A stretch of DNA of 64,000 nucleotides from Eledone cirrhosa (taxonomy: Eukaryota): assembly GCA_964016885.1 (NCBI GenBank), contig OZ024741.1, positions 2,666,001-2,730,000 of the forward strand, in the 5' to 3' direction. A program made the position numbers and the translations under genes. Each line of letters opens with the position of its first letter. The first letter of the stretch is position 1. Of the stretch, positions 419 through 63,792 are shown in pieces. Under the pieces are notes generated by a model that worked only from the letters and a program-made list of their open reading frames with translations, ran no database searches and was not told the origin of the DNA.

Positions 419-452
419 GTATGATATATATATATATTTATATATATATATA

Positions 453-1250
453 TAGGAACCAGTAAGACCCCGACAGCTGAGCTCAAGCCGTTTCGACGGC
501 TAATTCTGGACTAAATGAAAATTTATCCTGGTATTTAAATAGCCGATCTTCTCAAGGGGTAATTCCATATATGGTCAAAGTGATTGTCAAAAATCAGTAG
601 TAATTCTGTGGTTGCAAATTAGTAGGGGAGATGGTGGCTAAACCTGCCAGTAGGAGAAAGAGGGGAGGGGGTAGAGTAGCCCCAATCAAGCGTTTGTAGT
701 GCCAGCTACAGCTGTGCATGAGGTCAAAGAAGATACAAAGTCCTTCTACCCCAGCTCTTCTCCTTTGTCGGCGTCTTTTCTCGCCCACCCGAGGCTGCCC
801 TTTGGCCCCTTGTAGCCTTAGTACCTCCACCCCCTCCCCTAGTCTAGAATAGATTTGGCGGGGTAGAAGAGCTGGGGTAGAAGGACTTTGTATCTTCGTT
901 GACCTCATGCCCAGCTGTAGCTGGCACTACAAACGCTTGATTGGGGCTACTCCACCCCCTCCCCTCTTTCTCCTACTGGCAGGTTTAGCCACCATCTCCC
1001 CTACTAATTTGCAACCACAGAATTACTACTGATTTTTGCCAATCACTTTGACCATATATGGAATTACCCCTTGAGAAGATCGGCTACTTAAATACCAGGA
1101 TAAATTTTCATTTAGTCCAGAATTAGCCGTCGAAACGGCTTGAGCTCAGCTGTCGGGGTCTTACTGGTTCCTATTACCCACTCTACTACCTCAAGTATTG
1201 AGTACTTTGGTGCGTTATGGTCCACCTGGTTCCTTACCACATTTCCTTCG

Positions 1251-1252
<2 letters not shown>
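453..1252 (+). mobile_element. Family A PLE-like fold-back insertion: ~308-bp inverted arms (453-761 / 865-1173) plus ~80-bp 3' tail
   Basis: Arms are near-perfect reverse complements and are flanked by (TA)n; the same tail recurs at 3524-3602, 40540-40620(-), 49380-49495, 51575-51705, 58317-58475. Confidence 0.8.
1066..1159 (+). ncRNA. Type I hammerhead ribozyme, U3-A8 variant (family A); mirror copy 467-560(-), duplicate 3416-3509(+)
   Basis: acccc-TTGAGAA-gatcggcta...tagccgtc-GAAAC-ggcttgagctcagct-GTC-ggggt; stems I, II and III all pair. Confidence 0.7.
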
Positions 1253-1285
<33 letters not shown>

Positions 1286-1346
1286 ATATATATAAATATA
1301 TGTATGATATATATATATATATATATATATGTATGATATATATGTA

Positions 1347-1382
<36 letters not shown>

Positions 1383-1414
1383 TATATATATATATATCAT
1401 ATATATATATATAT

Positions 1415-1451
<37 letters not shown>

Positions 1452-1452
1452 A

Positions 1453-1519
<67 letters not shown>

Positions 1520-1569
1520 TGTATGATATATATATATATATATGTATGATATATATATATATATATGTA

Positions 1570-1640
<71 letters not shown>

Positions 1641-1670
1641 GATATATATATATATATATATATATGTATG

Positions 1671-1702
<32 letters not shown>

Positions 1703-1770
1703 GATATATATATATATATATATATGTATGATATATATATATATATGTATGATATATATATATATATGTA

Positions 1771-1809
<39 letters not shown>

Positions 1810-1952
1810 ATATATATATATATGTGTGTGATATATATATATGTATGATATATATATATATATATGATATTGACATATATATACGTATGATATATATATA
1901 TATATATATATATGCATGATATATATATATGTATGATATATATATATATGTA

Positions 1953-1993
<41 letters not shown>

Positions 1994-2045
1994 ATATATA
2001 TATATATATATATGTATGATATATAAATATATATATATATATGTA

Positions 2046-2090
<45 letters not shown>

Positions 2091-2128
2091 ATATATATAT
2101 ATATATGCATGATATATATATATATGTA

Positions 2129-2248
<120 letters not shown>

Positions 2249-2319
2249 ATATATATATATATATGATATATATACATATGATATATATATAAATATATAT
2301 ATATATGATACATATATAT

Positions 2320-2361
<42 letters not shown>

Positions 2362-2509
2362 ATATATATATGTATGATATATATATATATATGATATATA
2401 TATATAAATATATATATATACATATATGATATTGACATATATATATTTATATATACATATATATATATATGCATGATATATATATATGTATGATATATAT
2501 ATATATGTA

Positions 2510-2556
<47 letters not shown>

Positions 2557-2680
2557 ATATATATATATATGTATGATATATATATATATGTATGATATAT
2601 ATATATATGTAAGATATATATATATATATATATGTATGATATATATATATATATATATATATGTATGATATATATATGTA

Positions 2681-2719
<39 letters not shown>

Positions 2720-2738
2720 ATATATATATATATATGTA

Positions 2739-2781
<43 letters not shown>

Positions 2782-2835
2782 ATATATATATATATATATA
2801 TATGTATGATATATAAATATATATATATATATGTA

Positions 2836-2878
<43 letters not shown>

Positions 2879-2928
2879 ATATATATATATATATGCATGA
2901 TATATATATATATGTATGATATATATAA

Positions 2929-4715
<1,787 letters not shown>

Positions 4716-4866
4716 GATATATATATATGTATGATATATATATATATATGATATATATATATAAATATATATATATACATATATGATATTGACATATATA
4801 TATTTATATATACATATATATATATATGCATGATATATATATATGTATGATATATATATATATGTA

Positions 4867-4911
<45 letters not shown>

Positions 4912-4993
4912 ATATATATATATATGTATGATATATATATATATGTATGATATATATATATATGTAAGATATATATATATATATATATGTATG

Positions 4994-5024
<31 letters not shown>

Positions 5025-5037
5025 ATATATATATGTA

Positions 5038-5076
<39 letters not shown>

Positions 5077-5095
5077 ATATATATATATATATGTA

Positions 5096-5136
<41 letters not shown>

Positions 5137-5190
5137 ATATATATATATATATATATATGTATGATATATAAATATATATATATATATGTA

Positions 5191-5233
<43 letters not shown>

Positions 5234-5271
5234 ATATATATATATATATGCATGATATATATATATATGTA

Positions 5272-5391
<120 letters not shown>

Positions 5392-5816: not shown

Positions 5817-6162
5817 ATATATATATGTATGATATATATATATATATATATATGTATGATATATATATATATATGTATGATATCTATATATATATATATA
5901 TATATATGTATGATATATATATATATGTATGATATATATATATATAAAGAAAAAGAGATGAAATCGAAATTGCAACTGGAGTCTTATTTTTTTTTAAATA
6001 TATATATTTATTTGGTTCCTTTACCGGTTTCGTAGTTCTTCTGCTTTTCAAAAGGTGAGTTGAGATGGAGGGTCTGTGGTTTTTCTCACATCTGGTTGGT
6101 CTCTCAATGTTACTTGTTTTATATGGAAAAAGTGGCTCGAAATGCCAGGTTTTTCGAGAAGT

Positions 6163-6696
6163 AAAACAAAACCCAAGAATGAAAAAAGCCCTTGAAACAC
6201 ACAAAACCATCAAAAGCAAAAGACAACCAAAATCACTGAAAACATTACTCACCAATGCCAAATTACCTTCCACAAACCCACAACCAAGTATCAAAAAATG
6301 TGGTCGCTCTAATTGTGGAACCTGCACTCACCTCATTGAAGGCAACACGTATACATTTAAATCAGGACAACATTTTACTGTAAAAAATCACTTCACTTGC
6401 TCATCAAAAAATATAATTTATGCCATTAAATGTAAAGGATGCAATGAAGATTATATAGGACAAACTAAAATCACACTCAGAAACAGAATGACACATTTCA
6501 TCGCCAACAATTACGAGATCCAACCACGAGACAGATACCACTAAGTGCACATCTAGACATTTGCGCAAGTAATAAGACACCCAAATTCCAAGTCTTCCCA
6601 TTTTACCTTTACGCTAACAATACAACAGAACAAATGCGAATAAATAAGGAAAATATGTTTATTCAAAAATATAGACCAACATTTAATATGGTTTAA
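6163..6696 (+). pseudogene. PLE Cys-rich linker plus GIY-YIG endonuclease, frameshifted near 6496 (Neptune-like)
   Basis: CGRSNCGTCTH...NIIYAIKCKGCNEDYIGQTKITLRNRM, then the shifted frame reads HRQQ...LSAHLDIC...RINKENMFIQKYRPTFN*. Confidence 0.88.
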
Positions 6697-7176
6697 TATA
6701 CATTATATCAACACCATAATATGACATACACACATACACATAACACCTTCTACTTTAGAAAATAAAAACCCGAACTAAATAACCCTTAACATACGTTTGC
6801 ACTGACAATACAACAGCAAACACGAATAAGTAAGGAAAATATGTTCATTCAAAAATATTCCTACTAAAGGAATCACTTTCCTACACACACACACATACAC
6901 ACACACACAATATATATATATATATATATTCTCTTCATCTTAACATGCTAACCATACTCCCACACACATAACACCCATACACACACATAACAACCCCTAC
7001 ACCTACAACTCCCTCCCCATTTCTACTAATAGAACCACTTTCCTACACACATATATACACACACACACAAAATATATATTCTCTCCATCTTAACATACTC
7101 GCACACACACACATAACACCCATATACACACACACACAACTCCCTCCCCCATTTCTACTAATAGAATCATCTTCCA

Positions 7177-7232
<56 letters not shown>

Positions 7233-8053
7233 GCACACAAATAAACATACATATCTTCACTTCAATACAAAATCTGAACTCTGACACCAGTGAACTAACC
7301 ATATTCAGTGAACCAGAACAATTCTCCCAATCCCATTTCTCTTGACCACTAACTTTTCATTGTCATAACATTCGCTATAAAGACTACAGAATAGTTTTCC
7401 AAATAAGGGCGCAAAAATGTAATGAAAACTTGTTCACTTGACAGCCAAATTTCATTTATAACCAATCAAATCACGTTTATTAAAAAAAAGCCTTCGTGAG
7501 CCACCTTTTTTTAAAGTAAAGAAATTCAAACACACACACACACACACGCACACACACACACACACAAGCACACAAATAAACACACATATCTTTACTTTCT
7601 TTATTCAATAGAAAATCTGAATTCTGACACCCCAGCGAACTAACCATATTCACTGAACCAGAACAATTCTCCATCCCTTTCTCAAAAATTCTCTAAAAAG
7701 GCTACAGAATGGATTTCCAAATAAGGGCACAAACATTTAATGAAAATTTGTTCACGTGACAGCCATAATTTCATTTATAACCAACCCCAAAAAAGCCTTC
7801 GTGAGCCTCCTTTTTTCAAGTAAAAAGAAATTCAAACATTCATATATGAAAAAAACAACCTGTGACAACCCCCCTCTTATTTGAAGAACTATTGTAACGC
7901 GAACTGGCGCGAAATTTATTATAATTATTGACAAACCAATCAAATTACTTCTCGAAAAACCTGGCATTTCGAGCCACTTTTTCCATATAAAACAAGTAAC
8001 ATTCAGAGACCAACCAGATGTGAGAAAAACCACAGACCCTCCATCTCAACTCA

Positions 8054-8091
8054 CCTTTTGAAAAGCAGAAGAACTGCGAAACCGGTAAAGG
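8054..8091 (+). ncRNA. Minimal type I hammerhead, U3-A8 variant (family B); other copies 6018-6055(-), ~10830-10867(-), 10940-10977(+), 38798-38835(-), 38895-38932(+)
   Basis: cctt-TTGAAAA-gcag-aagaa-ctgc-GAAAC-cg-GTA-aagg with palindromic stem III ACCGGT. Confidence 0.75.
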
Positions 8092-8250
8092 AACCAAATA
8101 AATATATATATTTAAAAAAAAAATAAGACTCAGTTGCATTTTCGATTTCATCTCATTTTCTTTATACTTTCACTCGTGTAGGACACCTCGGTTATTTTTC
8201 ATTTTGTAAAAAAAACCTCTCTTTCTAATATATATATATATATATATATA

Positions 8251-8860
8251 TGGTGCCAACCTTAACCGATGTTACTCTATGAATAACTGGGACAAGCCAA
8301 TCCGAATGGATTAGAATCGATTAGACTATATATATATATAACATCGGTTAAGGTTGGCACCATTAACTCAAGGATGGATGTGGATATATTCATGCATATG
8401 TGTGTGTCCGCATGTATTTGTGTGTTTCTCAATATATTGTTTATAACTCCCTCTGGTCGAGTAATCTTTGAAGTGTAGTGACTGCTGGAAAGCTGCCATT
8501 ACTCATACTTCTCACCTCCTTAACCACCTCCTCTACGGCCTCGATATAAATACGCCCTCCGCCTCCGTGGTATTTTTTCAGGGTTATAAGGGGCTTAGCT
8601 CTGTTTCGTGACGGTTGTATCACGTGACTGACTCCCCTCCGCCTTTTGGGATTGTATCTCACATCTTATAGACGCGTTCTTGAGGCTAGTAAAAGGAGGT
8701 ATCCTCTTGATAAGTCGGCAGACCTCACAAAAGCTGTATATCTCTATGATGTATTGTTTTTGATTATGCCACGAAACTACGTAGTCGAGGAATCTAGAAG
8801 CAGTTTAGGTATGATACATCTTATTACTAATTATATCTAAATGTTTCTTCTCTCTTCATA
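8251..8860 (+). mobile_element. Family C PLE-like insertion with a 24-bp inverted repeat at its 5' end (8251-8274 / 8339-8362)
   Basis: tggtgccaaccttaaccgatgtta / taacatcggttaaggttggcacca; HHR near the 3' end; TA-flanked. Confidence 0.6.
8702..8791 (+). ncRNA. Type I hammerhead, U3-A8 variant with long stem II (family C)
   Basis: tcctc-TTGATAA-gtcggca...tgccac-GAAAC-tacgta-GTC-gagga. Confidence 0.72.
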
Positions 8861-8927
8861 ATATATATATATATATATATATATATGATATATATATATA
8901 TGATATATATATATATGATATATATAC

Positions 8928-9110
8928 GATATTAAACAAATGGAAACTACATTTATAAAACCATATTTATTTCATTATATAAATTTCAGGGATATCATAT
9001 TAAAAATATCATATTAAAAATATGGTATGCCCTCTTCAGACAAAATACAATATAAACAGTTTTATAATAAATTTGACATACCTTAAAAAATGTTAAACTT
9101 CCATTTAAAA
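8928..9110 (-). mobile_element. Family D arm with hammerhead (CTGAAGA...GAAAT..ATA) on the minus strand
   Basis: Reverse complement closely matches 17880-18035 and is related to 29013-29310. Confidence 0.65.
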
Positions 9111-9639
9111 AGTTGTTATGGTAGTGAGAATGTTAAGGACAGTTAGAAAGAAAGACGGAGAAAAAAGAAAAAAGAAAAAGAAGGAAAAAAAAAGAAAAGA
9201 AAGAGCGGAAGGTGAAGAAGATGAAGAAATGTATGTAAAGAGAAGAACACCAAATGAGAGATATATGAGGGAAGGGGGTACTGTAATTATTTATTTATTT
9301 ATTTATTTATTTAGTGTTAAGGATACGGGGAGAAATAAAAACAAAAACAAAAATAAATAAGGAGAGGTAGATCGAGTAATATCTATTATACGAGGTGGGA
9401 GAGATAGGGGAGGGGTGAGATACAGGAGATATATATATATATATATGATATATATATATGATATATATATATATATGATATATATATATATGATTTATAT
9501 ATATATGATATATATATATATATATATATATAAATATGATATATATATATATATGTATGATATATATATACTATATATATATATATGATATATCTATATA
9601 TATGTACGATATATATATATATATATTTATATATATGTA

Positions 9640-9676
<37 letters not shown>

Positions 9677-9735
9677 ATATAATATATATATATTTATATA
9701 TATGTATGATATATATATATTTATATATATGTATG

Positions 9736-9769
<34 letters not shown>

Positions 9770-9772
9770 GTA

Positions 9773-9810
<38 letters not shown>

Positions 9811-9915
9811 ATGATATATATATATATATATATGTATGATATATATATGATATATATATATGATATATATATATATGTATGATATATATATAAATCTATG
9901 ATATATATATATGTA

Positions 9916-9952
<37 letters not shown>

Positions 9953-9971
9953 ATATATATATATATGTATG

Positions 9972-10020
<49 letters not shown>

Positions 10021-10150
10021 ATATATATATATATATGTATGATATATATATATATATATATATGTATGATATATATATATATATGTATGATATATATATA
10101 TATATGTGTGATATATATATATATATCTATGATATATATATATATGTATG

Positions 10151-10181
<31 letters not shown>

Positions 10182-10275
10182 TGTATGATATATATATATA
10201 TATATGTATGATATATATATATATATATGTATGATATATATATATATATATGTATGATATATATTTATATGTATA

Positions 10276-10314
<39 letters not shown>

Positions 10315-10713
10315 GTATGATATATATATATATGATATATATATATGATATATATATATGATATATATATATATATATATATATGATATATATATATATA
10401 TATGATATATATATATATATATATATATATGATATATATATATATATATGATATATATATATATATATGATATATATATATATGATATATATATATATAT
10501 ATGATATATATATGATATATATATATGATATATATATATATGTATGATATATATATATATATATATATATATGATATATATATATATATATATATGATAT
10601 ATATATATATATATGATATATATATATATATATATATATATGATATATATATATATATATATGATATATATATATATATATATGATATATATATGATATA
10701 TATATGATATATA

Positions 10714-10756
<43 letters not shown>

Positions 10757-10761
<5 letters not shown>

Positions 10762-11115
10762 AAAAAGAGATGAAATCGAAAATGTAACTGAAGTCTTATT
10801 TTTTAAAAAATATATATATTTATTTGGTTCCTTTACCGGATTCGCAGTTCTTCTGCTTTTAAAAAGGTGAGTTGAGATGGAGGGTCTGTGGTTTTTCTCA
10901 CATCTGTGAGAAAAACCACAGACCCTCCATCTCAACTCACCTTTTGAAAAGCAGAAGAACTGCGAATCCGGTAAAGGAACCAAATAAATATATATATTTT
11001 AAAAAAAAATAAGACTTCATTTGCATTTTCGATTTCATCTCTTTTTCTTTATACTTTCACTCGTGTAGGACACCTCGGTTATTTTTCATTTTGTAAAAAA
11101 AACCTCACTTTCTAA
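10757..11115 (+). mobile_element. Family B short fold-back copy (inverted pLTR plus pLTR with tail)
   Basis: Palindrome centred at ~10903; same 3' tail as 8166-8228. Confidence 0.85.
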
Positions 11116-11330
11116 TATATATGTATATATATATATATATGTATGATATATATATATATATGATATATATATATATATATATGTATGATATATATATATG
11201 TATGATATATATATATATATATGATGTATATATATGATATATATATATATATATGTATGATATATATTTATATATATATATATGTATGATATATATATAT
11301 GTATGATATATATATATATATATATATATA

Positions 11331-14300
11331 TAAATTGAAACAAAATGAAAACGAAATTTCATTTCTCACTCTTAGTATGGCACTTACTTAAATGTAAGTA
11401 TGCATGTATACGTACATACATATATGTATACAGACGTACAGTAGCATGCACATATATATATATATATACATATATATATACATATGCATACAGGTACACA
11501 TACATATATGCACGTATCAGTTTAGCGGCGCTAACGTCGCTTTGTTCGTTTGTAAACAAACTGAACAGCCTGAATTTATGCCATACGGTGTTAAGGCAAC
11601 CACGTCACCTTTTTGTTCAACACTGACACAGGAACGATGTACTAGTTTCAAGCTTGTTAGCTATCATCAGCACCGTTTACCCATCTGCCAGATAGTTGAA
11701 CGTTCGAAAGTATATACTTTCCTTATGAAAATTAACGGCTGAGCAGCCTAATTTGCATATTGAGTGAGTTAAATCGGTCAGGCATACCGAAAACGATAAA
11801 TTGAAACAAAATGAAAACGAAATTTCATTTCTCACTCTTAGTATGGCACTTACTTAAATGTAAGTATGCATGTATACGTACATACATATATGTATACAGA
11901 CGTACAGTAGCATGCACATATATATATATATATACATATATATATACATATGCATACAGGTACACATACATATATGCACGTATCAGTTTAGCGGCGCTAA
12001 CGTCGCTTTGTTCGTTTGTAAACAAACTGAACAGCCTGAATTTATGCCATACGGTGTTAAGGCAACCACGTCACCTTTTTGTTCAACACTGACACAGGAA
12101 CGATGTACTAGTTTCAAGCTTGTTAGCTATCATCAGCACCGTTTACCCATCTGCCAGATAGTTGAACGTTCGAAAGTATATACTTTCCTTATGAAAATTA
12201 ACGGCTGAGCAGCCTAATTTGCATATTGAGTGAGTTAAATCGGTCAGGCATACCGAAAACGATAAATTGAAACAAAATGAAAACGAAATTTCATTTCTCA
12301 CTCTTAGTATGGCACTTACTTAAATGTGAGTATGCATGTATACGTACATACATATATGTATACAGACGTACAGTAGCATGCACATATATATATATATATA
12401 CATATATATATACATATGCATACAGGTACACATACATATATGCACGTATCAGTTTAGCGGCGCTAACGTCGCTTTGTTCGTTTGTAAACAAACTGAACAG
12501 CCTGAATTTATGCCATACGGTGTTAAGGCAACCACGTCACCTTTTTGTTCAACACTGACACAGGAACGATGTACTAGTTTCAAGCTTGTTAGCTATCATC
12601 AGCACCGTTTACCCATCTGCCAGATAGTTGAACGTTCGAAAGTATATACTTTCCTTATGAAAATTAACGGCTGAGCAGCCTAATTTGCATATTGAGTGAG
12701 TTAAATCGGTCAGGCATACCGAAAACGATAAATTGAAACAAAATGAAAACGAAATTTCATTTCTCACTCTTAGTATGGCACTTACTTAAATGTAAGTATG
12801 CATGTATACGTACATACATATATGTATACAGACGTACAGTAGCATGCACATATATATATATATATACATATATATATACATATGCATACAGGTACCCATA
12901 CATATATGCACGTATCAGTTTAGCGGCGCTAACGTCGCTTTGTTCGTTTGTAAACAAACTGAACAGCCTGAATTTATGCCATACGGTGTTAAGGCAACCA
13001 CGTCACCTTTTTGTTCAACACTGACACAGGAACGATGTACTAGTTTCAAGCTTGTTAGCTATCATCAGCACCGTTTACCCATCTGCCAGATAGTTGAACG
13101 TTCGAAAGTATATACTTTCCTTATGAAAATTAACGGCTGAGCAGCCTAATTTGCATATTGAGTGAGTTAAATCGGTCAGGCATACCGAAAACGATAAATT
13201 GAAACAAAATGAAAACGAAATTTCATTTCTCACTCTTAGTATGGCACTTACTTAAATGTAAGTATGCATGTATACGTACATACATATATGTATACAGACG
13301 TACAGTAGCATGCACATATATATATATATATACATATATATATACATATGCATACAGGTACACATACATATATGCACGTATCAGTTTAGCGGCGCTAACG
13401 TCGCTTTGTTCGTTTGTAAACAAACTGAACAGCCTGAATTTATGCCATACGGTGTTAAGGCAACCACGTCACCTTTTTGTTCAACACTGACACAGGAACG
13501 ATGTACTAGTTTCAAGCTTGTTAGCTATCATCAGCACCGTTTACCCATCTGCCAGATAGTTGAACGTTCGAAAGTATATACTTTCCTTATGAAAATTAAC
13601 GGCTGAGCAGCCTAATTTGCATATTGAGTGAGTTAAATCGGTCAGGCATACCGAAAACGATAAATTGAAACAAAATGAAAACGAAATTTCATTTCTCACT
13701 CTTAGTATGGCACTTACTTAAATGTAAGTATGCATGTATACGTACATACATATATGTATACAGACGTACAGTAGCATGCACATATATATATATATATACA
13801 TATATATATACATATGCATACAGGTACACATACATATATGCACGTATCAGTTTAGCGGCGCTAACGTCGCTTTGTTCGTTTGTAAATAAACTGAACAGCC
13901 TGAATTTATGCCATACGGTGTTAAGGCAACCACGTCACCTTTTTGTTCAACACTGACACAGGAACGATGTACTAGTTTCAAGCTTGTTAGCTATCATCAG
14001 CACCGTTTACCCATCTGCCAGATAGTTGAACGTTCGAAAGTATATACTTTCCTTATGAAAATTAACGGCTGAGCAGCCTAATTTGCATATTGAGTGAGTT
14101 AAATCGGTCAGGCATACCGAAAACGATAAATTGAAACAAAATGAAAACGAAATTTCATTTCTCACTCTTAGTATGGCACTTACTTAAATGTAAGTATGCA
14201 TGTATACGTACATACATATATGTATACAGACGTACAGTAGCATGCACATATATATATATATATACATATATATATACATATGCATACAGGTACACATACA

Positions 14301-16768
14301 TATATGCACGTATCAGTTTAGCGGCGCTAACGTCGCTTTGTTCGTTTGTAAACAAACTGAACAGCCTGAATTTATGCCATACGGTGTTAAGGCAACCACG
14401 TCACCTTTTTGTTCAACACTGACACAGGAACGATGTACTAGTTTCAAGCTTGTTAGCTATCATCAGCACCGTTTACCCATCTGCCAGATAGTTGAACGTT
14501 CGAAAGTATATACTTTCCTTATGAAAATTAACGGCTGAGCAGCCTAATTTGCATATTGAGTGAGTTAAATCGGTCAGGCATACCGAAAACGATAAATTGA
14601 AACAAAATGAAAACGAAATTTCATTTCTCACTCTTAGTATGGCACTTACTTAAATGTGAGTATGCATGTATACGTACATACATATATGTATACAGACGTA
14701 CAGTAGCATGCACATATATATATATATATACATATATATATACATATGCATACAGGTACACATACATATATGCACGTATCAGTTTAGCGGCTCTAACGTC
14801 GCTTTGTTCGTTTGTAAACAAACTGAACAGCCTGAATTTATGCCATACGGTGTTAAGGCAACCACGTCACCTTTTTGTTCAACACTGACACAGGAACGAT
14901 GTACTAGTTTCAAGCTTGTTAGCTATCATCAGCACCGTTTACCCATCTGCCAGATAGTTGAACGTTCGAAAGTATATACTTTCCTTATGAAAATTAACGG
15001 CTGAGCAGCCTAATTTGCATATTGAGTGAGTTAAATCGGTCAGGCATACCGAAAACGATAAATTGAAACAAAATGAAAACGAAATTTCATTTCTCACTCT
15101 TAGTATGGCACTTACTTAAATGTAAGTATGCATGTATACGTACATACATATATGTATACAGACGTACAGTAGCATGCACATATATATATATATATACATA
15201 TATATATACATATGCATACAGGTACCCATACATATATGCACGTATCAGTTTAGCGGCGCTAACGTCGCTTTGTTCGTTTGTAAACAAACTGAACAGCCTG
15301 AATTTATGCCATACGGTGTTAAGGCAACCACGTCACCTTTTTGTTCAACACTGACACAGGAACGATGTACTAGTTTCAAGCTTGTTAGCTATCATCAGCA
15401 CCGTTTACCCATCTGCCAGATAGTTGAACGTTCGAAAGTATATACTTTCCTTATGAAAATTAACGGCTGAGCAGCCTAATTTGCATATTGAGTGAGTTAA
15501 ATCGGTCAGGCATACCGAAAACGATAAATTGAAACAAAATGAAAACGAAATTTCATTTCTCACTCTTAGTATGGCACTTACTTAAATGTAAGTATGCATG
15601 TATACGTACATACATATATGTATACAGACGTACAGTAGCATGCACATATATATATATATATACATATATATATACATATGCATACAGGTACACATACATA
15701 TATGCACGTATCAGTTTAGCGGCGCTAACGTCGCTTTGTTCGTTTGTAAACAAACTGAACAGCCTGAATTTATGCCATACGGTGTTAAGGCAACCACGTC
15801 ACCTTTTTGTTCAACACTGACACAGGAACGATGTACTAGTTTCAAGCTTGTTAGCTATCATCAGCACCGTTTACCCATCTGCCAGATAGTTGAACGTTCG
15901 AAAGTATATACTTTCCTTATGAAAATTAACGGCTGAGCAGCCTAATTTGCATATTGAGTGAGTTAAATCGGTCAGGCATACCGAAAACGATAAATTGAAA
16001 CAAAATGAAAACGAAATTTCATTTCTCACTCTTAGTATGGCACTTACTTAAATGTAAGTATGCATGTATACGTACATACATATATGTATACAGACGTACA
16101 GTAGCATGCACATATATATATATATATACATATGCATACAGGTACACATACATATATGCACGTATCAGTTTAGCGGCGCTAACGTCGCTTTGTTCGTTTG
16201 TAAACAAACTGAACAGCCTGAATTTATGCCATACGGTGTTAAGGCAACCACGTCACCTTTTTGTTCAACACTGACACAGGAACGATGTACTAGTTTCAAG
16301 CTTGTTAGCTATCATCAGCACCGTTTACCCATCTGCCAGATAGTTGAACGTTCGAAAGTATATACTTTCCTTATGAAAATTAACGGCTGAGCAGCCTAAT
16401 TTGCATATTGAGTGAGTTAAATCGGTCAGGCATACCGAAAACGATAAATTGAAACAAAATGAAAACGAAATTTCATTTCTCACTCTTAGTATGGCACTTA
16501 CTTAAATGTAAGTATGCATGTATACGTACATACATATATGTATACAGACGTACAGTAGCATGCACATATATATATATATATACATATATATATACATATG
16601 CATACAGGTACACATACATATATGCACGTATCAGTTTAGCGGCGCTAACGTCGCTTTGTTCGTTTGTAAATGTTTGCATATGTATATATATATGTATATA
16701 TATATATATATGTGCATGCTACTGTACGTCTGTATACATATATGTATGTACGTATACATGCATACTTA
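11331..16768 (-). repeat. Retrozyme-like tandem array: 11 full ~466-bp monomers plus a partial 12th, ending in a ~95-bp inverted segment (16674-16768)
   Basis: Period 466 (ORF starts 11345, 11811 ... 16005; the 11th unit is 454 bp); one minus-strand HHR per monomer; TA-flanked. Confidence 0.92.
11633..11677 (-). ncRNA. Minimal type I hammerhead ribozyme (first of 11 copies, one per monomer)
   Basis: Minus strand: aacggtg-CTGATGA-t-agct-aaca-agct-t-GAAAC-ta-GTA-catcgtt; palindromic stem III ACTAGT. Confidence 0.85.
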
Positions 16769-17057: not shown

Positions 17058-17061
<4 letters not shown>

Positions 17062-47654: not shown

Positions 47655-47725
47655 ATTATATATATATATATATATGTGTGTGTCTACCCGTGTGTGTGTG
47701 TGTGTATATATATATATATGTGTGT

Positions 47726-48062
47726 ATAATAAGAGAAACGTAAATTTTGTTTACGTGTATTTATGTTATCATTGTGAATCGACCTGCTGCGCACGTTTCA
47801 CAGATCATTGGCTCAAGGTCAGCCATGGAGGTTATCGACTCGACACAGTATCGATCTACTCATCAAACTAGTGATTCAGTGATTCAACAAACACTTTTTT
47901 TTTGTTGAATCAACTGTCTGGTGAGCAGATTGATACCGGAATCGGGTCCATATATTCCATAGGTGACCTTGAGCCAATCCTCTGCGAAGCGCGCGTACCA
48001 GGTTTATTCACAATGATAACATAAATACATATAAACAAAACTTCATCATTTCTCTTATTATA
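47726..48062. mobile_element. Old family L fold-back insertion with degenerate long-stem-II hammerheads in both arms
   Basis: Right arm CTGGTGA-gcaga...tctgc-GAAGC-gcgc-GTA; left arm (minus) TTGATGA-gtaga...tctgt-GAAAC-gtgc. Confidence 0.6.
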
Positions 48063-48102: not shown

Positions 48103-48103
<1 letters not shown>

Positions 48104-48345
48104 AGGAGGTGAGTTTTATTGTAGTACAATAAAGCAATGCAGATATCGGATAAGTAGCACTCTACAGTTTGTAGGACTGGATTATAAATAATATAAGATC
48201 AAAAGATGGTTAAAAGAGTTCCATGTATTTTATTATGCGCATTTCAAAAACAAATATCATCATGAGATGATATTTGTTTTTGAAATGCGCATAATAATAT
48301 ACATGGAACTCTTTTAACCATCTTTTGATCTTATATTATATATAT
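48103..48345 (-). mobile_element. Family J fold-back insertion (another copy 39751-39895), inverted within the HHR core
   Basis: Palindrome 48190-48340 containing ATGA-tatttgttttt-GAAAT-gcgc-ATA. Confidence 0.65.
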
Positions 48346-48816: not shown

Positions 48817-48896
<80 letters not shown>

Positions 48897-49964
48897 GAAC
48901 CACTCTACAACCCCAAGTATCGACTACTCTGGGGAGTAATGGTTTAACTTGTTTTTACCGCCTCCATTCTGATATATATATTTAAAGGATCTGTATTTCT
49001 TTTTTTCTTCTTTGATTCGTCAAATGAAAAAATGAAAGGAACAATTTCTTTTTTAAAAAGGAGTTTTATAATGTCTATAAAATATATCAAATATAACCGG
49101 TTTCGATGTATCGGTGTAATCGACCTTATCAAATGTTGAATATTACAATTGAAAAGAATTAAAGATTAAACATTTTAAATTAAATGTTGAAGAAGGTCTG
49201 TTCCAAGATGGCGAAGGGTAGAATAAAGGAGGGACACAGAAAATCTACAAAAGTAGTCTTTTAGGAAGTCACAGAATGTGTGACGAAACAGCTTTGACAA
49301 TCAACAACAATTAATAGCCATGTGGTCAATAAACTAACCAACTGGGAGTTTGTAATAAATTGAAATTAACCCCAACAATTGCTCTGCCGTCGAGGTCCTG
49401 AACCTTTTCCTATTACCCACTCTACTACCCAAAGTATCGAGAACTCTGGTGCGTTATGGTCCACCTGGTTCCTTACCACACTTTCTTCATTATATATGAC
49501 GGCTGCCCCCTCGTTATCAAGTATGGCCATTGCACGATATACCATTATTAATAATTATTAATTAATTCTATCGTGCAATGCCTGTACATGAAGATATTTT
49601 TTAAAGTGAGGAAAGACTGTGCACTGAGCCAATCCCACTCTCTGAGCGACAGTAGCTATAACCCGAAAAGAAGAAAAGATCAACAACATCGGTAACTACT
49701 GAGCCACAGGTTTTATATCGGAGTTATCCCAGTTTCCTGAGTTGCCTTCTCCTAGAAGAATGCCCTGACAAAGGCTAGGGCTCCTTCACTCCCAGTGGTT
49801 TAACCGTGCGATCGGGTGTCTAGCCCGACTATTTTTATCTCCCCGCGCATATACATACACATGCACCCATGTATATACACATATACATACATATGTGCAT
49901 GTGTTCATAGATATTTACACACCTTTGGATGGCCCTTGATTCTTATGAGTTCTTCCGCCCTTTG

Positions 49965-51193: not shown

Positions 51194-52040
51194 TTGTATG
51201 AGTATGTAGGCGTTCTTTGATTTCTTTTACATATATATATATATTTCTTTTCTGAATTTGTTTAGCAAGATTCTTTATCTGAAAACGTGTGTTGAAACCG
51301 ATATTATTATACTTTGGGAGGGTCATGTGCCAATAAGAAACACACGCACCAGTTGCAATCACTCCAATTTATTATAAATTAAATTTATAAATTTAAGAAA
51401 TTTGTAAATTTCCGGTTGGTTGGTTGGTTCCACAACCGGACGGATGTTCATATATTGTCAAACTTCTTTCGTCACACATTCTGTGACCTCTTCAGTGACT
51501 GGGGATTATTTTCTTTGTTTTGTGCCTCTCCTTTGTTCTGTCCTACGCCATCTTGTTTTTGGCAAAAACAAGAAATAGCCGTCGAAACGGCTTGAGCTCT
51601 GCCGTCGGGGTCATATTTTTTCATATTACTCACTCTACTGCCGTATGTATTGAGTACTCTGCTGCGTTATGGTCCATCTGGTTCTTTACCACAATTCCTT
51701 CGTTATATATATATATATATATATATATATAACCAGAAAATGCAAACAGAACACAACTGTTACATGACAAAAAGCTTTGTCAGAGAAAAGGCAATTTGAT
51801 ATCTTCCTCTCACCCTTTGTCTCACGATTGTGTTGACAAGATGTTAAGTGGTCAAACAGCTAAGACTACCTACTTATGCATCTGGACATCTTCAGACAAT
51901 ATATACACCTGTAAAAATGTATACCTATCTGTTTATGCATCTATTCTTCCATCTATATTCCTGTTTGTCTATAATCTATTTCTGTTTATCTATCCTTCTG
52001 TCTATATGTGTATTTATTATCCTACTATCCATCTCTCTAT

Positions 52041-52348
52041 CAGTTTTATGAAAGGTGGGTGAAAGTGTCGAGAAAGGCCCGTGTGAATGGGCCTTCTCTC
52101 TATATCAGCCTGTAGGTGAAAAAGGTAGAGGAAGAAGGGAGCTCTTTGTGCTCTTTGTGCTCCCGGGGAGAAGGGTTGCACATTTTTTCGGGGGTGTGTG
52201 CGACCCCAAAACGCCCTTTCCCTATTGAGGACTTCGATTGTTTTATTTTATTTGTTATATTTTTGTACTCGTTTTATTGTATGTAAACTCCCCCTCCCCC
52301 TTGTATTTGTCCCTTTCTTTTGTGCCCTGGTGGCAAATAAATAAAAAC
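52041..52348 (+). mobile_element. Short 3' fragment of the same Tx1/L1-like LINE, embedded in (TCTA)n
   Basis: Matches 53942-54240 (gttttatgaaaggtgggtgaaagtg...gggccttctctctatatcagcctgtagg). Confidence 0.8.
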
Positions 52349-52435
52349 TTATCTATCTATTTATCTGTATGTCTGTCTATTTATCTACCTATCTCTCTAC
52401 CTATCTCTCTATCTATCTGTCTATCTACATGTATA

Positions 52436-53104: not shown

Positions 53105-54245
53105 TTATCTCCCTTCTAACGGAGAGCTGGGGATGCCGCGGCTGACGATGAGCAAACACGCGTTCAGGCTGCGGCATCTCTACGTATTCATCACCGGACA
53201 ACCGGTGTTGGCCCCGTTCGTGAGCGAGCCTTCCCACGACTCGTCTCGCTGACCGAGCTGCAGTCCTGGGTTAAGCAAAGACCGAGGAAAATGGGCGACT
53301 GGCACATCGAATCTGCTCAGGCGCTCACAGCCCTCTGGCAGGCGGACCCGGCGATCAGTGGAGACTCCACTTCGTAATTCTATAGAGGGTTGATCCGCAG
53401 CAAGTGCGACGACACGGTCGGTGAAACTCTAGGCGTAGAGGAAGATGAACTGGCCAGTCTGTTCGGTAGGACCTTCCGCCCGGGACCGATGGACAACTTC
53501 CAAAAGTCCCTGGCCTGGCAGTGCTACCGAGGAGCTCTACCAGTTCGAGACAAGCTCTTCAGACATGGGCGCCCGGGCAGGGACCTTGCAAAAAGATCTG
53601 TCCGAGGTGCGTGCGAGACGAAGAAACCGTCGCGCACGCATTCATACACTGCCCGGGCGTCACCGACCTATGGGGCTATGTAGAACGACTATTGTCGCGG
53701 GTGGGACCAATCCGGTTGACCACCGAGTCCATTGTCATGATCAAACTGCCACCCTCCTTCAAAAACGAAGGAGAGGCGGTTTTCCTTTGTGTGATAGCTA
53801 TGGCGAAAGAGGTTGTATGGTGGACAAGGTTGAAAGGGCTGAGGTCAGACACCTTTCTCTCCGGCCAACAACGGATTCTTTTTTTCAAATACCACTTTGG
53901 AAGAAGAATCAGGATGGAGAGAGAGGTGCTGTACCCCAGCAAGTTTTATGAAAGGTGGGTGAAAGTGGCGAGAATGGCCCGAGTGAATGGGCCTTCTCTC
54001 TATATCAGCCTGTAGGTTCAGGAAAAGGAGGAGGAGAGGAAAGGAGTACAAACTCTTCGTACTCCTGGAGATGAGGGTTGCACACTTTTATGTGTTACCC
54101 ATATGTAATGTCTCCCCCTATTGGAGAAAATCGACTAATTTTTAAATTGCATTTGTGATAATATTTTACACGTTTTTATTGTATGCAAACTTCCCCCTTT
54201 GTATTTGTCCCCTTCTTTTGTGCCCCTGTGGCTAATAAAGAAACA
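53105..54245 (+). pseudogene. 5'-truncated Tx1/L1-like LINE: degenerate ORF2 C-terminus (RT-associated zinc-binding region) plus 3' UTR
   Basis: LAWQCYRGALPVRDKL, then CPRC-x3-EETVAHAFIHC-x5-LW...KEVVWWTR; ORF ends at 54015; aataaa followed by a (TCTA) tail. Confidence 0.8.
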
Positions 54246-55595
54246 TCTATCTATCTCTTTATCTGTCTTTCTGCCTGTCGTTCTCTGGCTATCTATTCAA
54301 GCAATAACAACAATAACAACAACGGAGCCCAAATCCCAATAGCAGAGCATTTATAGATAGACTGATATATATGTGTGTGTGCGTATGTGTGTGTGTGTGT
54401 CTGTGTGTCTGTGAGTGTCTGTGTATGTATGTGTATGTGTGTGTATGTGTGTGTCTGTGTGTGTCTGTGTGTCTGTGTGTGTATGTGTGTGTGTCTGTCT
54501 GTGTCTATGTGTGTGTGTCTGTGTGTCTGTGTGTGTCTGTGTGTGTGTGTGTGTCTGTGTGTGTGTGTCTGTGTGTATGTGTGTTAATATATATAGACAC
54601 ACACACAAATATATATATATACTGTAGTATAAGTTTGGTAGAAAAATCCAGGAGTTTAAAGCTTCTATCCCTAGGAAGAGTTAAGAATAATTAGTTACAA
54701 GAGTTAAGTATAATTAGTTACAAGAGTTAAGTATAATTAGTTACAACTGTGGTGTGTAGAGGTACTTACGTTTCGTTGGGTTATACACCCGAACACACTG
54801 CTATATATATATGAGGGGGGGGGAGGTATGTATATGAATGTGTGTGTTATATTAAAGTCTTTGCTCCGAGTGTAGTCAAAAGATGTTTCTCGTTTCTTTA
54901 TAATCCGTTTATGTATAATTTGCTGCAGGACACCATTCCTAAATCCATTTGACTTTTAATTCTTCGAGACCTTTCCAGTGTCATACAATGGTGTAGTGTT
55001 TTAATAGGCACACATTTTACTAGGTCGCAGATGATCAAAGGATTATGAATCGTTAATGCAGGATATTTATTGAATGGTTAATTCTTGGAAACCTTCATAG
55101 TTAATTTCATGTATCTGTGTTATTTATTAGGGAAGCATACGGGGGGGGGGGGGCGGGAAAGTTCCAGCTTTGGGTAAAAGAAAATATAGGAGGATCAGTT
55201 AATTATGATTTTATTCAACTTATTCCCGTCTCAGATTCACACACTTATTGCAGTGGTCCTTTAGTTTTACTAAACCCTGTAAAAAGAACTCGAAAGGTTG
55301 GGTCTCCCACCAGGCCTCTGTAGCAGTGATCAACCCAGGAACTTTCCAGCATCCCCTTGTAGATCTTTCTCAGCATCCCAGCATCCCCTTGTAGATATCT
55401 TTTTCATTCTTGTCATCAACTAGGACTTAAACGTTGAATTCATAGATTTAAGAGTCGAGTATTATAAATTGAAGGCGGCGGATAGAATGATTTGCGGTAT
55501 ATCACTTTCTCTAGAAGAAATAAATAAAAGTGATATATACATATATATATATATATATAGAAAGATTTGAATGGATACAGTTTAGTTGAAAGGAA

Positions 55596-56665: not shown

Positions 56666-57605
56666 TTATGTAATATTCTGCTTGTAGTGGGAAAAAAGGG
56701 TTTTAGTTCTGTGACGGCAGAATAATGTTCGTTCAATTCTGTTATTCAGCAGTTTCTTCTTGTGTGTGATTATGTAATAAATCTCAAGATTACACAATTT
56801 GCAGAAATTTTGGCTCCTGGAAAAGCTTTGGGTTTTAGCTAATTTTTCCCATTTTAGGGTAAACTTTTGATTGCTATCCCTGAGCGTCCAAGCTTTTTCT
56901 GCTAAAGTTGTTACATTTCTTTGGCTCTGGTGTTTTATTGAGTAAGAATGCCTATACAATCGAGATTTAAACGATGTTGCCGTTGATCCCACGTAATACC
57001 ACTCGTTGCCTCCGGATTTAATGGTACACTTATAAATAATATTTTTTTCCAGGCAGTTATTGCCGAGGGGGCAGTTGTCAGGATAGGTGCAGTTACAGTT
57101 GTGTACGTTGGGTTTTCTCTGGAGTAGTATTGCGGACGAACTTAGGTGTGGTTTATTTATGTTCTGTAGTGTATTGTCTACTGTTTTTTTGGGGTTCTTT
57201 GTACTTAAGTTCTTAGTGTTTTCGTTTAACCTTCTAGTATTGATCTTTTTTATGTGTTGTTCAAGGTTTAACGCTGTAGAGTATGACAGTCTTATAGTGG
57301 TAGGGTTTAGGATTTTGTGGTATTTGTGTGATGTGGGAAAATGTCTTTTAATTATTTTAAAGAAGAGTACTGGTAAATTTGTACTAATGGAGCTATTGTA
57401 TTCGGGGCTATACCATAAGTACTCTTTGCATCGCTTTCTATTAGTTTTGTTTGTTGGTTTACTGGTGTGCATACTATGGTAGTAAGTGTGGTTTGGTGTT
57501 GTGTTATTATATCTACCTATGTGGGATTTATTTTGGGTGTTTTGATTGTTCCCATCTATGTACTCTATTTTGTTGAGGTAGCCTGCTTTACTAAGGGCGT
57601 TATAT
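56666..57605 (-). pseudogene. PLE ORF 3' part (post-RT linker plus GIY-YIG, Nematis-like from memory): ~313 open codons, 5'-truncated at (TA)n
   Basis: RKR...LWYSPEYN...KRHFP..HKYHKILN..TIRLSYS; CNC...CPLGNNCLEKNIIYKC...YYVGST..FKSRLYRH; CKLCNLE...LLNNRIE...CRH. Confidence 0.88.
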
Positions 57606-57611
57606 ATATAC

Positions 57612-57724
<113 letters not shown>

Positions 57725-58473
57725 TGTGTGTGTGTGTGTAGCCATATCTGTAGCTGTGAAAAGGAAAAAAAGAAAACAGTGCTCAATCTGGAAGAGATCA
57801 GAGATATTATTATACAAAAGCGGTGGATTGGCAGTATCGGTAGAAGGTCGGACGCCATGTTTTCCAGCATAGTTACGTCCCTTTACGATCTGAGTTCAAA
57901 TCCCGCCGAGGTTGACTTTGCCTTTCATCCTTACGGGGTCGATAAAATAAAGTACCAGTAATGCACTGGGTAATTGCTGGCCTTGTGCCTAAAGTAGAAA
58001 CAATTATTATACAAAAGCGCTACATAATGTTTCAAGGTCAAAATTCGACCTCCAGAAAACAAGAGTTATCGAAGTAGGGACTTCAGGGGCTAATACCAGT
58101 TTAAGGGTTATGGTTAGAAACTCGTATTAGCGCCTGAAGAAAGTTAAAGTACCAGTAATGCACTGGGATAATTGCTGGCATTGTGCCAAAAGTAAAAATA
58201 ATTATTTTGGTGACTTGTTTTTGGAGGTATGGTCACATTTGGGCCTTGATACCCTGCATGAACATAAATATATTATATATCATATATATAATATTTTATA
58301 TATATTATATATATATAGGAAAATGTTCAAGACCCCTCGACAGAAATATGTCGAAACAGCTTGAGCTCTGCCGTCGGGGTCTTGAACATTTTTCTATTAC
58401 CCACTCTACTACCCAAAGTATCGAGTAGTCTGATGCGTTATGGTCCACCTGGTCACTTACCACACTTCCTTCG

Positions 58474-58527
<54 letters not shown>

Positions 58528-59075: not shown

Positions 59076-59142
59076 ATAATAAACGAAGCCAACTTTAACA
59101 TGTTTGACTTACTTATTTTATATATGTATATATATATATATG

Positions 59143-59669
59143 TAAGAATATTTTCGAAACAGCGAGTTGGTTTGAAATTATTAGAATTGTAAGCTATCGC
59201 CGTATTTGGACTAAAGAAATTAAAGAAATTATTTAGCCTGATAGTGGGGTTAAGAACCCTCGGTGTAAATGGTAGGACGGTGGTCCGGATAACCAAAAAT
59301 GTGGGTTCGACTCCCATGTACGTCAATACTCATCTTTTTCCATTTCTCCGAGGGTTCTTAACCCCACTATCAGGCTAAATAATTTCTTTAATTTCTTTAG
59401 TCAAAATACGGCGATAGCTAACATTTCTAATAATTTCAAACCAACTCGCTGTTTCGAAAATATTCTTACTTGACATTACAGTCGCTAAGTTTATAGCTTC
59501 TAATTTGAATGGAAAAAGACGGGTGATGTGTTAGTGTAAATGGTAGCACAGTGGTCTGGATAACCAAAGATGTGGGTTCGACTCCCATGTACGTCAATAC
59601 TTATGTTTTTCCATTTCTCCGAGGGTTCTTAACCCCACTATCAGGCTTCTTTAATTTTTTTAGCTTACA

Positions 59670-59680
<11 letters not shown>
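59143..59680 (+). mobile_element. Family G: inverted arm plus tandem units containing a tRNA-like head (59525-59597); fragment also at 19983-20132
   Basis: 59143-59262 is the reverse complement of ~59348-59469; A-box tagtgtaaatgg, B-box ggttcgactcc, tggt/acca anticodon-like stem. Confidence 0.65.
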
Positions 59681-60284: not shown

Positions 60285-60755
60285 TCTGAGAGTTGGAAGT
60301 GAGAGGTCAGGCACCCCAGGGCAGGATATTTACTGAGAGTGGGAAGGGAGAGGTCAGGCACCCCAGGGCAGGATATTTACTGAGAGTGGGAACTGAGAGG
60401 TGAGGTACCCCAGGGCAGGATATTTACCGAGAGTGGGAACTGGGAGGTGAGGTACCCTAGGGCAGGATATTTACTGAGAGTGGGAACTGGAAGGTGAGGC
60501 ACTCCAGGGCACGATATTTACTGAGAGTGGGAACTGAGAGGTGAGGTACCCCAGGGCAGGATATTTACTGAGAGTGGGAACTGGGAGGTGAGGTACCCCA
60601 GGGCAGGATATTTACTGAGAGTGGGAACTGGGAGGTGAGGCACCCTAGGGCAGGATATTTACTGAGAGTGGGAACTGGTAGGTGAGGCACCCTAGGGCAG
60701 GATATTTACTGAGAGTGGGAACTGGTAGGTGAGACACCCCAGGGCAGGATATTTA
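60285..60755 (+). repeat. 47-bp G-rich minisatellite, ~10 copies
   Basis: Unit actgagagtgggaactgggaggtgaggtaccccagggcaggatattt. Confidence 0.95.
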
Positions 60756-61275: not shown

Positions 61276-61516
61276 GATAGAGAGGGAGAGAGGGAAAGAG
61301 AGAAATAAGGAGAGAGGGAGAGAGAAAAGACTTCTACAAGACTAAAACTGTTTCAATCGTATGGAATCATCGGGAATGACTCCATACGAATGAAACAGTT
61401 CTAGTCCTGTAGAAGTCATTTCTATGTAAAATAAAGATGTCTACAATCTACCAACGTATTGAGTACTTTTTTTACTGTAATTTACCCCTGACACTGACAC
61501 AACTGAGGAGCCTACA

Positions 61517-61795
61517 TATATATATACTACTAAAACTCTGTGATTGTGTGCTTGTCTGTAATGTAATATAGCCAAAAGGGCGCATAATCGGAAAATACTT
61601 TGTAAGAAAGTTGCCCTGAAATGGAAATACAAATGGAATAAAACAGGTTTCGCGTAAATCGGAGCACGGGTTCTCGAGATACGTGGTTTTTCTGGGAATC
61701 TTCATAAATAGAGAAAGAGAATGATAGAGAGAAAGAGATAGTGGTTGTGTAAGTGTAGATTGAGAGAGAGATAGAGATAGCGAGAGATAGATAGG

Positions 61796-62161: not shown

Positions 62162-62321
<160 letters not shown>

Positions 62322-63755: not shown

Positions 63756-63792
<37 letters not shown>

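Follow-up and report, generated by a model that had tools for sequence, protein, structure and literature searches.

Inverted-arm insertions of a Penelope-like element and of non-coding families in an Eledone cirrhosa window mostly end at two recurrent sites that bound a one-sided tail

Results

Content of the window and the family B element

The DNA analysed here is a 64,000-nucleotide (nt) window of the Eledone cirrhosa contig OZ024741.1 (GCA_964016885.1, positions 2,666,001-2,730,000), and all coordinates below are positions in that window. It is AT-rich animal DNA, masked as dinucleotide repeat over ~22% of its length, and it holds 19 insertions in simple repeats that carry an inverted arm. 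They belong to a Penelope-like element (PLE), family B, and to other families, most of which are hammerhead-bearing non-coding elements. Two family B insertions, a solo copy of family D, the small locus F and long (TA)n tracts occupy the interval 5945-11115. A sequence-only reading of this DNA had noticed that the inverted arms of independent insertions start at the same internal position, short of the 3' end of the element. This observation is real, and wider than was then stated; the positions given for it were correct to 0-3 nt.

Inverted matches were obtained by self-BLAST with the dinucleotide repeats masked. The set of 19 loci comprises the masked inverted matches with an arm ending at a simple repeat, plus two short loci found by eye (58315 and 39755); it leaves out inverted matches lacking simple-repeat bounds (20667-21052, 21189-21738, 41775-41970, 49517-49591 and 49857-49904), matches between distant copies, and (ATT)n matches. 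Our own type I hammerhead descriptor, which misses bulged or mutated copies (e.g. locus F, B2), found 32 motifs in the window against a mean of 1.0 in 20 shuffles. The motifs fall in families A, B, D, H and J, in the 466-bp and 310-bp arrays and in several solo copies, and they fix the RNA polarity and make the arrays retrozyme-like. No hammerhead family was present among the best 150 of 266 Rfam matches, which were mostly sub-threshold microRNA matches to the palindromes.

Insertion 1 of family B retains the end of an open reading frame (ORF), in which a CxxxxCxxC linker lies upstream of a C-terminal GIY-YIG endonuclease (ORF 6059-6544; profile match E=0.011, below the curated cut-off). Such a CX2-5CxxC linker with a C-terminal GIY-YIG domain defines Neptune and Nematis (PMC8557442; this and the other papers are cited for the portions consulted), so that by these definitions family B is, from its sequence features, a Neptune- or Nematis-type endonuclease-positive (EN+) PLE. 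Homologues of the ORF are ~750-770 aa long, are 54-70% identical over the fragment, and carry a reverse transcriptase (RT) domain with PF00078 and the DKG motif; the 5'-truncated copy of the window does not itself include an RT. A predicted hammerhead in the pseudo-long terminal repeat (pLTR), an inverted 5' copy and a tail are all present in family B. Moreover, the hammerheads of families A and B have the U3-A8 core described in PLEs (PMC4209133). The Naiad clade was considered and ruled out: Naiads have an N-terminal endonuclease and no canonical hammerhead (PMC8557442), whereas the endonuclease is C-terminal both in the window and in the homologues, and a hammerhead motif is present.

Two recurrent end sites

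We call site 1 the 5' edge of the tail, which is the inner site and the tail-less end of an insertion, and site 2 the 3' edge of the tail. At 16 of the 19 loci, 40-115 nt separate the outer end of one arm from that of the other, one site being used per end. Under an independent 50:50 choice of site at each end, 16 offset loci have a probability of 0.5^16=1.5e-5; when only the symmetric locus is counted as a misfit, 16 of 17 loci are discordant and the probability is 1.4e-4. The outer ends also recur within a few nt in each of the multi-copy families A, B, D, E, H and K.

In family B both sites are identical in 3/3 copies, with the last templated base of the arm at 5943, 10755 and 39008 and tails of 61-62 nt. 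Family A keeps site 1 within 3 nt in 3/3 copies (452-454, 58315-58317 and 40748), the third lying 3 nt further along the template than the position 40745 first assigned to it, and site 2 recurs in 5/5 tailed copies, with tails of 72-78 nt. Both sites are common to the 2/2 copies of family K and each recurs within several nt in family H, while family E has site 2 in common between its palindrome and a solo copy. In family D the palindrome has its arm end at 29013; the copy at 8928, which had been taken for a second inverted arm, stands alone on the minus strand and lacks a mirror in its vicinity (best local score 18-23 of 80), and it ends at the same site 1, within ~3 nt. Likewise, the inverted arm of the 466-bp array stops short of the element end, at 16768, and the main array ends at site 2 (11330), the tail being 62 nt long.

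Either arm may carry the tail. At three tandem-unit loci (62318-63757, 42096-42497 and 59142-59678) the tail is on the inverted arm, and the main copy ends at site 1, which at 59142-59678 lies ~40 nt upstream of site 2. Solo copies, too, use either site: the one at 8926 ends at site 1, whereas that at 20130 and the A copies at ~51703 and ~49490 end at site 2. Thus, both sites behave as starts.

Relation between the two arms

The sequence-only reading derived both arms of an insertion from one template, and called for a comparison of arm divergence. In family B the arms differ by 0.7-3.5% within an insertion (3 pairs) and by 2.8-8.0% between insertions (12 pairs); within-insertion values are 5.8% in D and 5.5% in H42. 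Private variants are also found where they had been reported: GAATCC is common to both arms of B insertion 2 (10838 and 10964) and absent from the other two B insertions, and AAAGGGATG is present in both arms of B insertion 3 (38731 and 38991). Shared variants show a common source, not a common molecule, so that the one-template claim holds for the source, which the inner ends also support, and the single molecule goes beyond it.

The inner inversion point had been described as freely varying, which does not hold. With arm reaches entered by hand from the alignments, the inner ends of one insertion are at most 8 nt apart in 7 of the 13 non-tandem loci, against 1.3 expected (permutation p=2e-5), and in 0/3 tandem loci. 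Relative to the hammerhead cleavage site, the turn of the two B hairpins lies at -62/-63 nt in one and at -68/-70 nt in the other, and three H loci turn in or beside the hammerhead core (by eye). Most inner junctions are in or 5' of the hammerhead, as expected for an uncleaved RNA template. Finally, the arms are non-nested at 39755-39895 (~25 nt), 61323 (~5 nt), 10755 (2 nt) and 39008 (1 nt), which calls for two RNA-templated syntheses.

With moderate confidence, we favour a reading in which both ends of the target cut prime on one RNA, at two fixed points defined by its structure. Alternatively, complementary DNA (cDNA) primed at the tail end could snap back and copy itself, after which the endonuclease would cut the hairpin at a TA near site 1 and join it to the other target end. 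Near-perfect hairpin centres at 7/13 loci and the 28-bp hairpin 17818-17874 agree with such a fold-back, a TA-preferring endonuclease would account for the TA at site 1, and self-priming and endonuclease resolution have been proposed for PLEs (PMC3846280 and PMC8557442, respectively). However, the tail-less arm would have to be nested in the tailed arm, which fails at 39755-39895 and at 61323, and the solo copies and three main copies that end at site 1 make this site a start as well; both sites are indeed reverse transcription starts in vitro (PMC11167929). Non-nested arms and coincident inner ends favour two primings over self-priming. We therefore regard fold-back as unlikely in general, and it may explain a minority of loci such as 17818.

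Two separate RNAs from one source copy, one per protein subunit, could also be primed independently, with later gene conversion aiding the similarity of the arms. This would account for the shared variants, for the non-nested arms and for a full overlap of the arms without strand displacement, and common structural stall points near the hammerhead could align the inner ends. Taken alone, however, it leaves unexplained the use of one site per end (16/17, counting only the symmetric locus against) and the inner ends that are 1-8 nt apart at positions differing from copy to copy, as in the two B hairpins. We consider this explanation rather unlikely.

Target pairing at the two sites

In the sequence-only reading, one arm is primed where the cut (TA)n target pairs with an internal site containing TA, so that the pairing would choose where the arm starts. 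Taking the lowest copy per family-site, an overlap of at least 2 nt with (TA)n is found at 12/17 family-sites, against 4.4 expected for blunt joins of random position and phase (p=1.5e-4). The overlap is 4 nt in 3/3 B copies and 4-5 nt in J, and the A copy 40748 is shifted by 3 nt to the next TA. The excess is however not significant if joins take the better phase (expectation 8.5, p=0.07) or may slide by 2 nt (expectation 13.5, p=0.88). Overlaps range from 0 to 5 nt and are 0 nt at the lowest copy of three family-sites; there is none at 29013 (0 nt and one untemplated base), 59142 and 18930. Each of the examined templates offers 13-64 TA/AT dinucleotides, and longer perfect TA tracts ~60 nt off are left unused (10 nt in B, 9 nt in D, at least 13 in the 466 unit). 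In families H and K, some ends are joined to (CA)n or (CT)n tracts, at roughly the usual sites of the family, and in vitro starts are non-homologous to the cut DNA (PMC11167929). Something other than pairing thus sets the site. The internal fixed start and some pairing stand, slight pairing probably sets the register, and its selecting the site appears improbable.

Palindromes in (TA)n-rich DNA are prone to artefacts, and the window does contain a perfect 2.35-kb tandem duplicate (577-5276). An origin of the inverted arms in chimeric fold-back reads or in assembly is nevertheless very hard to sustain, as the arms differ by the above percentages in B, D and H42, spacer length varies from 1 nt to beyond 1780 nt, into the kilobase range, the mirrors stop at family-specific sites without including flanking DNA, and the same architecture has been published for PLEs of other animals (PMC8557442, PMC3846280).

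A bulged hairpin 3' of site 1

In families A, J and K and in two subfamilies of D, a hairpin of the form NNTC-XXX-loop-XXX-TN-GANN starts 7-8 nt 3' of site 1; in H the distance is 12-17 nt. The pattern has 19 matches in the window against a mean of 3.5 (maximum 8) in 100 shuffles; judged by reading, 15/19 fall within tails or fragments resembling them and the other 4 seem to be chance matches, and two of the 15 (43309 and 20246) lie in copies outside the set that defined the motif. In 12 aligned copies, 98.8% of the cells are paired, 5/7 pairs have two-sided changes, and the covariation score was reached in 0/500 shuffles. The hairpin is a candidate for the signal that sets the site, a lead and not a proof. 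A stable hairpin 3' of site 1 in every family was considered too, and is unsupported.

Other families and loci

Features of the insertions are collected in Table 1.

Table 1 Features of the insertions discussed, by family (positions in the window)
Feature	Positions	Strand	Remarks
B insertion 1, inverted tail-less arm	5943-6164	-	outer end at site 1; 4-nt TATA overlap with (TA)n flank
B insertion 1, ORF end, 5'-truncated	6165-6696	+	CxxxxCxxC linker, C-terminal GIY-YIG endonuclease; frameshift ~6500-6541
B insertion 1, direct arm	7945-8166	+	mirror of 5943-6164; 217 matches, 4 mismatches, 2 gaps
B minimal type I hammerhead, U3-A8 core	8054-8091	+	predicted cleavage after 8087
B tail	8167-8228	+	62 nt, from site 1 to site 2
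B insertion 2, near-perfect palindrome	10755-11114	+	arm 10755-10902, mirror 10905-11053, 61-nt tail; GAATCC in both arms
B insertion 3, palindrome	38660-39008	-	1-nt spacer; tail 38660-38721, inverted arm 38866-39008
A insertion 1	452-1251	+	inverted arm 453-761, mirror 865-1173, tail 1175-1251
A insertion 2, near-perfect palindrome and tail	40543-40748	-	arm end 3 nt beyond other A copies
A insertion 3	58315-58474	+	short inverted arm, direct copy, tail
D solo copy (homologous part)	8926-9115	-	hammerhead motif, tail-less end at site 1, non-palindromic
D palindrome	29013-29407	+	hammerheads in both arms, 95-nt tail, bulged hairpin 29321; site-1 junction without TA overlap
E, tRNA-headed tandem element	59142-59678	+	inverted arm ends at site 2, as solo 20130; main copy ~40 nt upstream
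Locus F	8250-8363	.	25-nt inverted arm; outer end ~420 nt upstream of hammerhead-like motif ~8705-8793 (by eye)
Locus G, older palindrome	26480-26738	+	~40-nt tail
H palindrome	39547-39696	-	(CA)n at the tail end; (TA)n at site 1, where the inverted arm stops
H tandem-unit insertion	42096-42497	-	main copy ends at site 1; inverted arm tailed (site 2)
H palindrome	61323-61517	+	tail-less arm joins (GA/CT)n, ~5 nt further 5' than tailed arm
J tandem insertion, ~528-nt unit, hammerhead	62318-63757	+	main copy stops at site 1, inverted arm 115 nt beyond it at site 2
K palindrome, non-nested arms	39755-39895	-	tail-less arm ~25 nt further 5'; bulged hairpin 39832
K near-perfect palindrome	48103-48339	-	~80-nt tail
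466-bp tandem array, retrozyme-like	11330-16768	-	one hammerhead per unit (11 found)

Tandem non-coding units with a type I hammerhead each, as in retrozymes, are found in the 466, 310, H and J arrays, whose units are 466, 310, ~240 and ~528 nt long, respectively. The scan found 11 hammerheads at the array period in the first, 3 in the second, 1 in H, where a second is seen in the alignment, and 2 direct ones in J. The bulged hairpin of the J insertion lies at 63232. The 310-bp array (~18111-18935) has a hammerhead in each unit, abuts a D-tail end, and meets (TA)n at its 3' end with 0 overlap. Solo hammerhead copies at 41159, 55708 and 59021 meet (TA)n 42-61 nt past the predicted cleavage, like the tail-less D copy, and tail-like fragments stand alone between (TA)n tracts at ~20170-20262 (-), with a bulged hairpin, and at 48895-48975 (+), resembling an A tail. 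The descriptor detected no hammerhead at locus G.

In A insertion 1 the hammerhead core is at 1071 (predicted cleavage after 1154) and the bulged hairpin of the tail at 1180-1203. Part of this insertion with its (TA)n flank is repeated in tandem (577-2926 and 2927-~5276), with 2345/2345 aligned bases identical, which is either a very recent duplication or an assembly artefact; the duplicate of A copy 577-1251 with its flank, at 2927-3600, was not counted as an independent insertion. Family E has a tRNA match in place of a hammerhead at its head (59525-59596, 48.4 bits), and its copies 59142-59678 and 19985-20130 combine this tRNA head with a PLE-style tandem, an inverted arm and two end sites, which suggests a short interspersed element (SINE) mobilised by a PLE.

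Other remnants lie further along the window. A PLE-like family has five copies (17059-17771, 23742-24736, 25150-25308, 42735-42964 and 51302-51548) with one common 3' end by eye; it has a GIY-YIG-like ORF remnant at 24227-24736, also by eye and without Pfam support, and a hammerhead motif at 42910, and no inverted arm was seen in these copies. A 409-codon open frame at 56666-57895 (-), with a Cys-rich GIY-YIG-like C-terminal part recognised by eye without a Pfam match, probably belongs to a different PLE clade. At 53130-54294 there is a GC-rich 3' fragment like that of a long interspersed element (LINE), with a weak zf-RVT match (E=3.6e-4) and a related 3' piece at 52042-52394. Two minisatellites, with short AT-rich units (43801-45472) and with ~47/94-bp GC-rich units (60286-60755), contained no hammerhead in the scan, and a 200-base assembly gap lies within a (TA)n-rich tract at 28645-28844.

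Discussion

Most insertions that carry inverted arms in simple repeats of this window thus have two ends of different kind, one at each edge of the tail. In the reading that we favour, PLE proteins would insert PLE RNA (family B) as well as non-coding passenger RNAs, retrozyme-like and in one case SINE-like. The protein would bind a structured RNA segment of 40-115 nt, the tail, and cut both strands of a microsatellite, usually (TA)n. The two 3'-OH ends would then serve as primers on a single RNA, one cDNA being begun at site 2 (the 3' edge of the tail) and the other at site 1 (its 5' edge), with a primer-RNA pairing of 0-5 nt setting the register and not the site. The two antisense cDNAs would often stop near the same template position, then join at their 3' ends with fill-in, and the product would be a palindrome of head-to-head arms, only one of them tailed. 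Observed in the window are the anatomy of the insertions, the fixed sites, the use of one site per end, the arms that are not nested, the coinciding inner ends and the hairpin. The cutting and extension of both strands, the two internal starts and the predicted dimer are carried over from the literature on another PLE; we infer that a single RNA molecule serves both ends, that the hairpin binds the protein and that the cDNAs are joined in this way.

Several points weigh against this reading. Three of the 19 loci do not fit: 47725-48062 is old, with mirror-symmetric ends, degenerate hammerhead-like motifs and arms ~18% divergent, while at 17818-17874 and 8250-8363 the arms are short and their starts remote from the site of the family. 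The sample is one 64-kb window with 1-3 palindromes per family. One pair of B arms from different insertions (2.8%) is as close as the within-insertion pairs, two RNAs from one locus, or gene conversion, would account for the shared variants just as well, and the non-nesting is large at one locus only. As to the hairpin, the motif was defined by eye on these very families, so its statistics are optimistic; the 12-row alignment has two misaligned H rows, and some of its families may be related; no such hairpin occurs in B, the only ORF-linked family, or in E, G and the 466 array; and the 45-nt windows taken 3' of site 1 have a mean folding z of -1.2, a modest gain over shuffles. Finally, the start site reported in PMC11167929 is the same on both strands, which does not in itself predict one site per end.

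A more specific version is that the bound tail RNA serves a PLE dimer as a ruler for placing the two reverse transcription starts at the tail edges, so that both cut ends are primed on one RNA, and that the hairpin is the cis signal by which unrelated retrozyme-like RNAs recruit the protein. We offer this version tentatively. If true, the ruler step alone would account for both the inverted pLTR and the one-sided tail. The formation of tandem and inverted PLE insertions and their microsatellite preference are named as an open problem in PMC8557442, and the two-start result obtained in vitro explains the tail, not the inverted arm, in the main text of PMC11167929. The junction rules (a single site at each end, a tail on either arm, arms that are not nested, inner ends that coincide) therefore provide a specific test in an existing in vitro system. 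The structure of the junctions is also direct evidence for the insertion of retrozyme-like arrays and of a tRNA-headed element by the PLE machinery, and the hairpin is a candidate recognition motif.

In LINE-1 twin priming, too, the second target strand is extended from an internal point of the RNA already in use, and an inverted segment results, with microhomology at the inner joint. Its inverted and direct parts have hardly any overlap, and its internal site depends on complementarity to the target. Here, in contrast, the arms overlap over their whole length, the site is fixed and longer TA tracts are unused; these insertions are thus not of the L1 twin-priming type.

The closest biochemical counterpart is a purified PLE, Poseidon from Anolis carolinensis (PAc; Frangieh et al. 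2024, PMC11167929), which cuts and extends both target strands, starts reverse transcription at two internal sites bounding the tail, non-homologous to the cut DNA, prefers uncleaved RNA and is a predicted dimer. Fixed internal starts that bound a one-sided tail are thus already known, as the known tail boundaries and as starts demonstrated in vitro in that source. The insertions described here are alike in these two starts, in AT-rich targets, in the upstream hammerhead and, in the reading that we favour, in the uncleaved RNA template and in the cutting and extension of both strands. They differ in the length of the tail, 30-40 bp in PAc and 40-115 nt here, and in the overlap of 0-5 nt with the target, common here, whereas the PAc starts are non-homologous to it; the main text of PMC11167929 contains no inverted-arm model and no one-site-per-end rule. 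A literature search that did not extend to older subscription papers did not find this rule, non-nested arms, the longer tails, the hairpin, or a PLE end signature on retrozyme-like or tRNA-headed elements, and the portions consulted of PMC13282606 and PMC12602865 have nothing on junctions.

EN+ PLEs (Neptune, Nematis, Naiad, Hydra; Craig et al. 2021, PMC8557442, summarised in PMC8969392) have an inverted 5'-truncated copy, a tail that is often one-ended, and (TA)n targeting. The likeness to these and to the Adineta PLEs extends to partial tandems and palindromic inverted junctions (PMC8557442, PMC3846280), and in EN+ PLEs the (TA)n preference is tied to the CX2-5CxxC linker (PMC8557442). Unlike in our reading, however, their tail is ascribed to endonuclease resolution and their palindromes to self-priming (PMC8557442, PMC3846280). 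Metazoan non-LTR (long terminal repeat) retrozymes likewise consist of non-coding units repeated in tandem, every unit having one type I hammerhead, and their mobilisation by PLEs has been proposed from co-occurrence and sequence similarity (PMC7229834; bioRxiv 10.64898/2026.07.22.740005); the word "inverted" is absent from the portion consulted of PMC7229834. Unlike those retrozymes, the arrays of this window bear the PLE end signature itself, an inverted arm, two sites and a tail.

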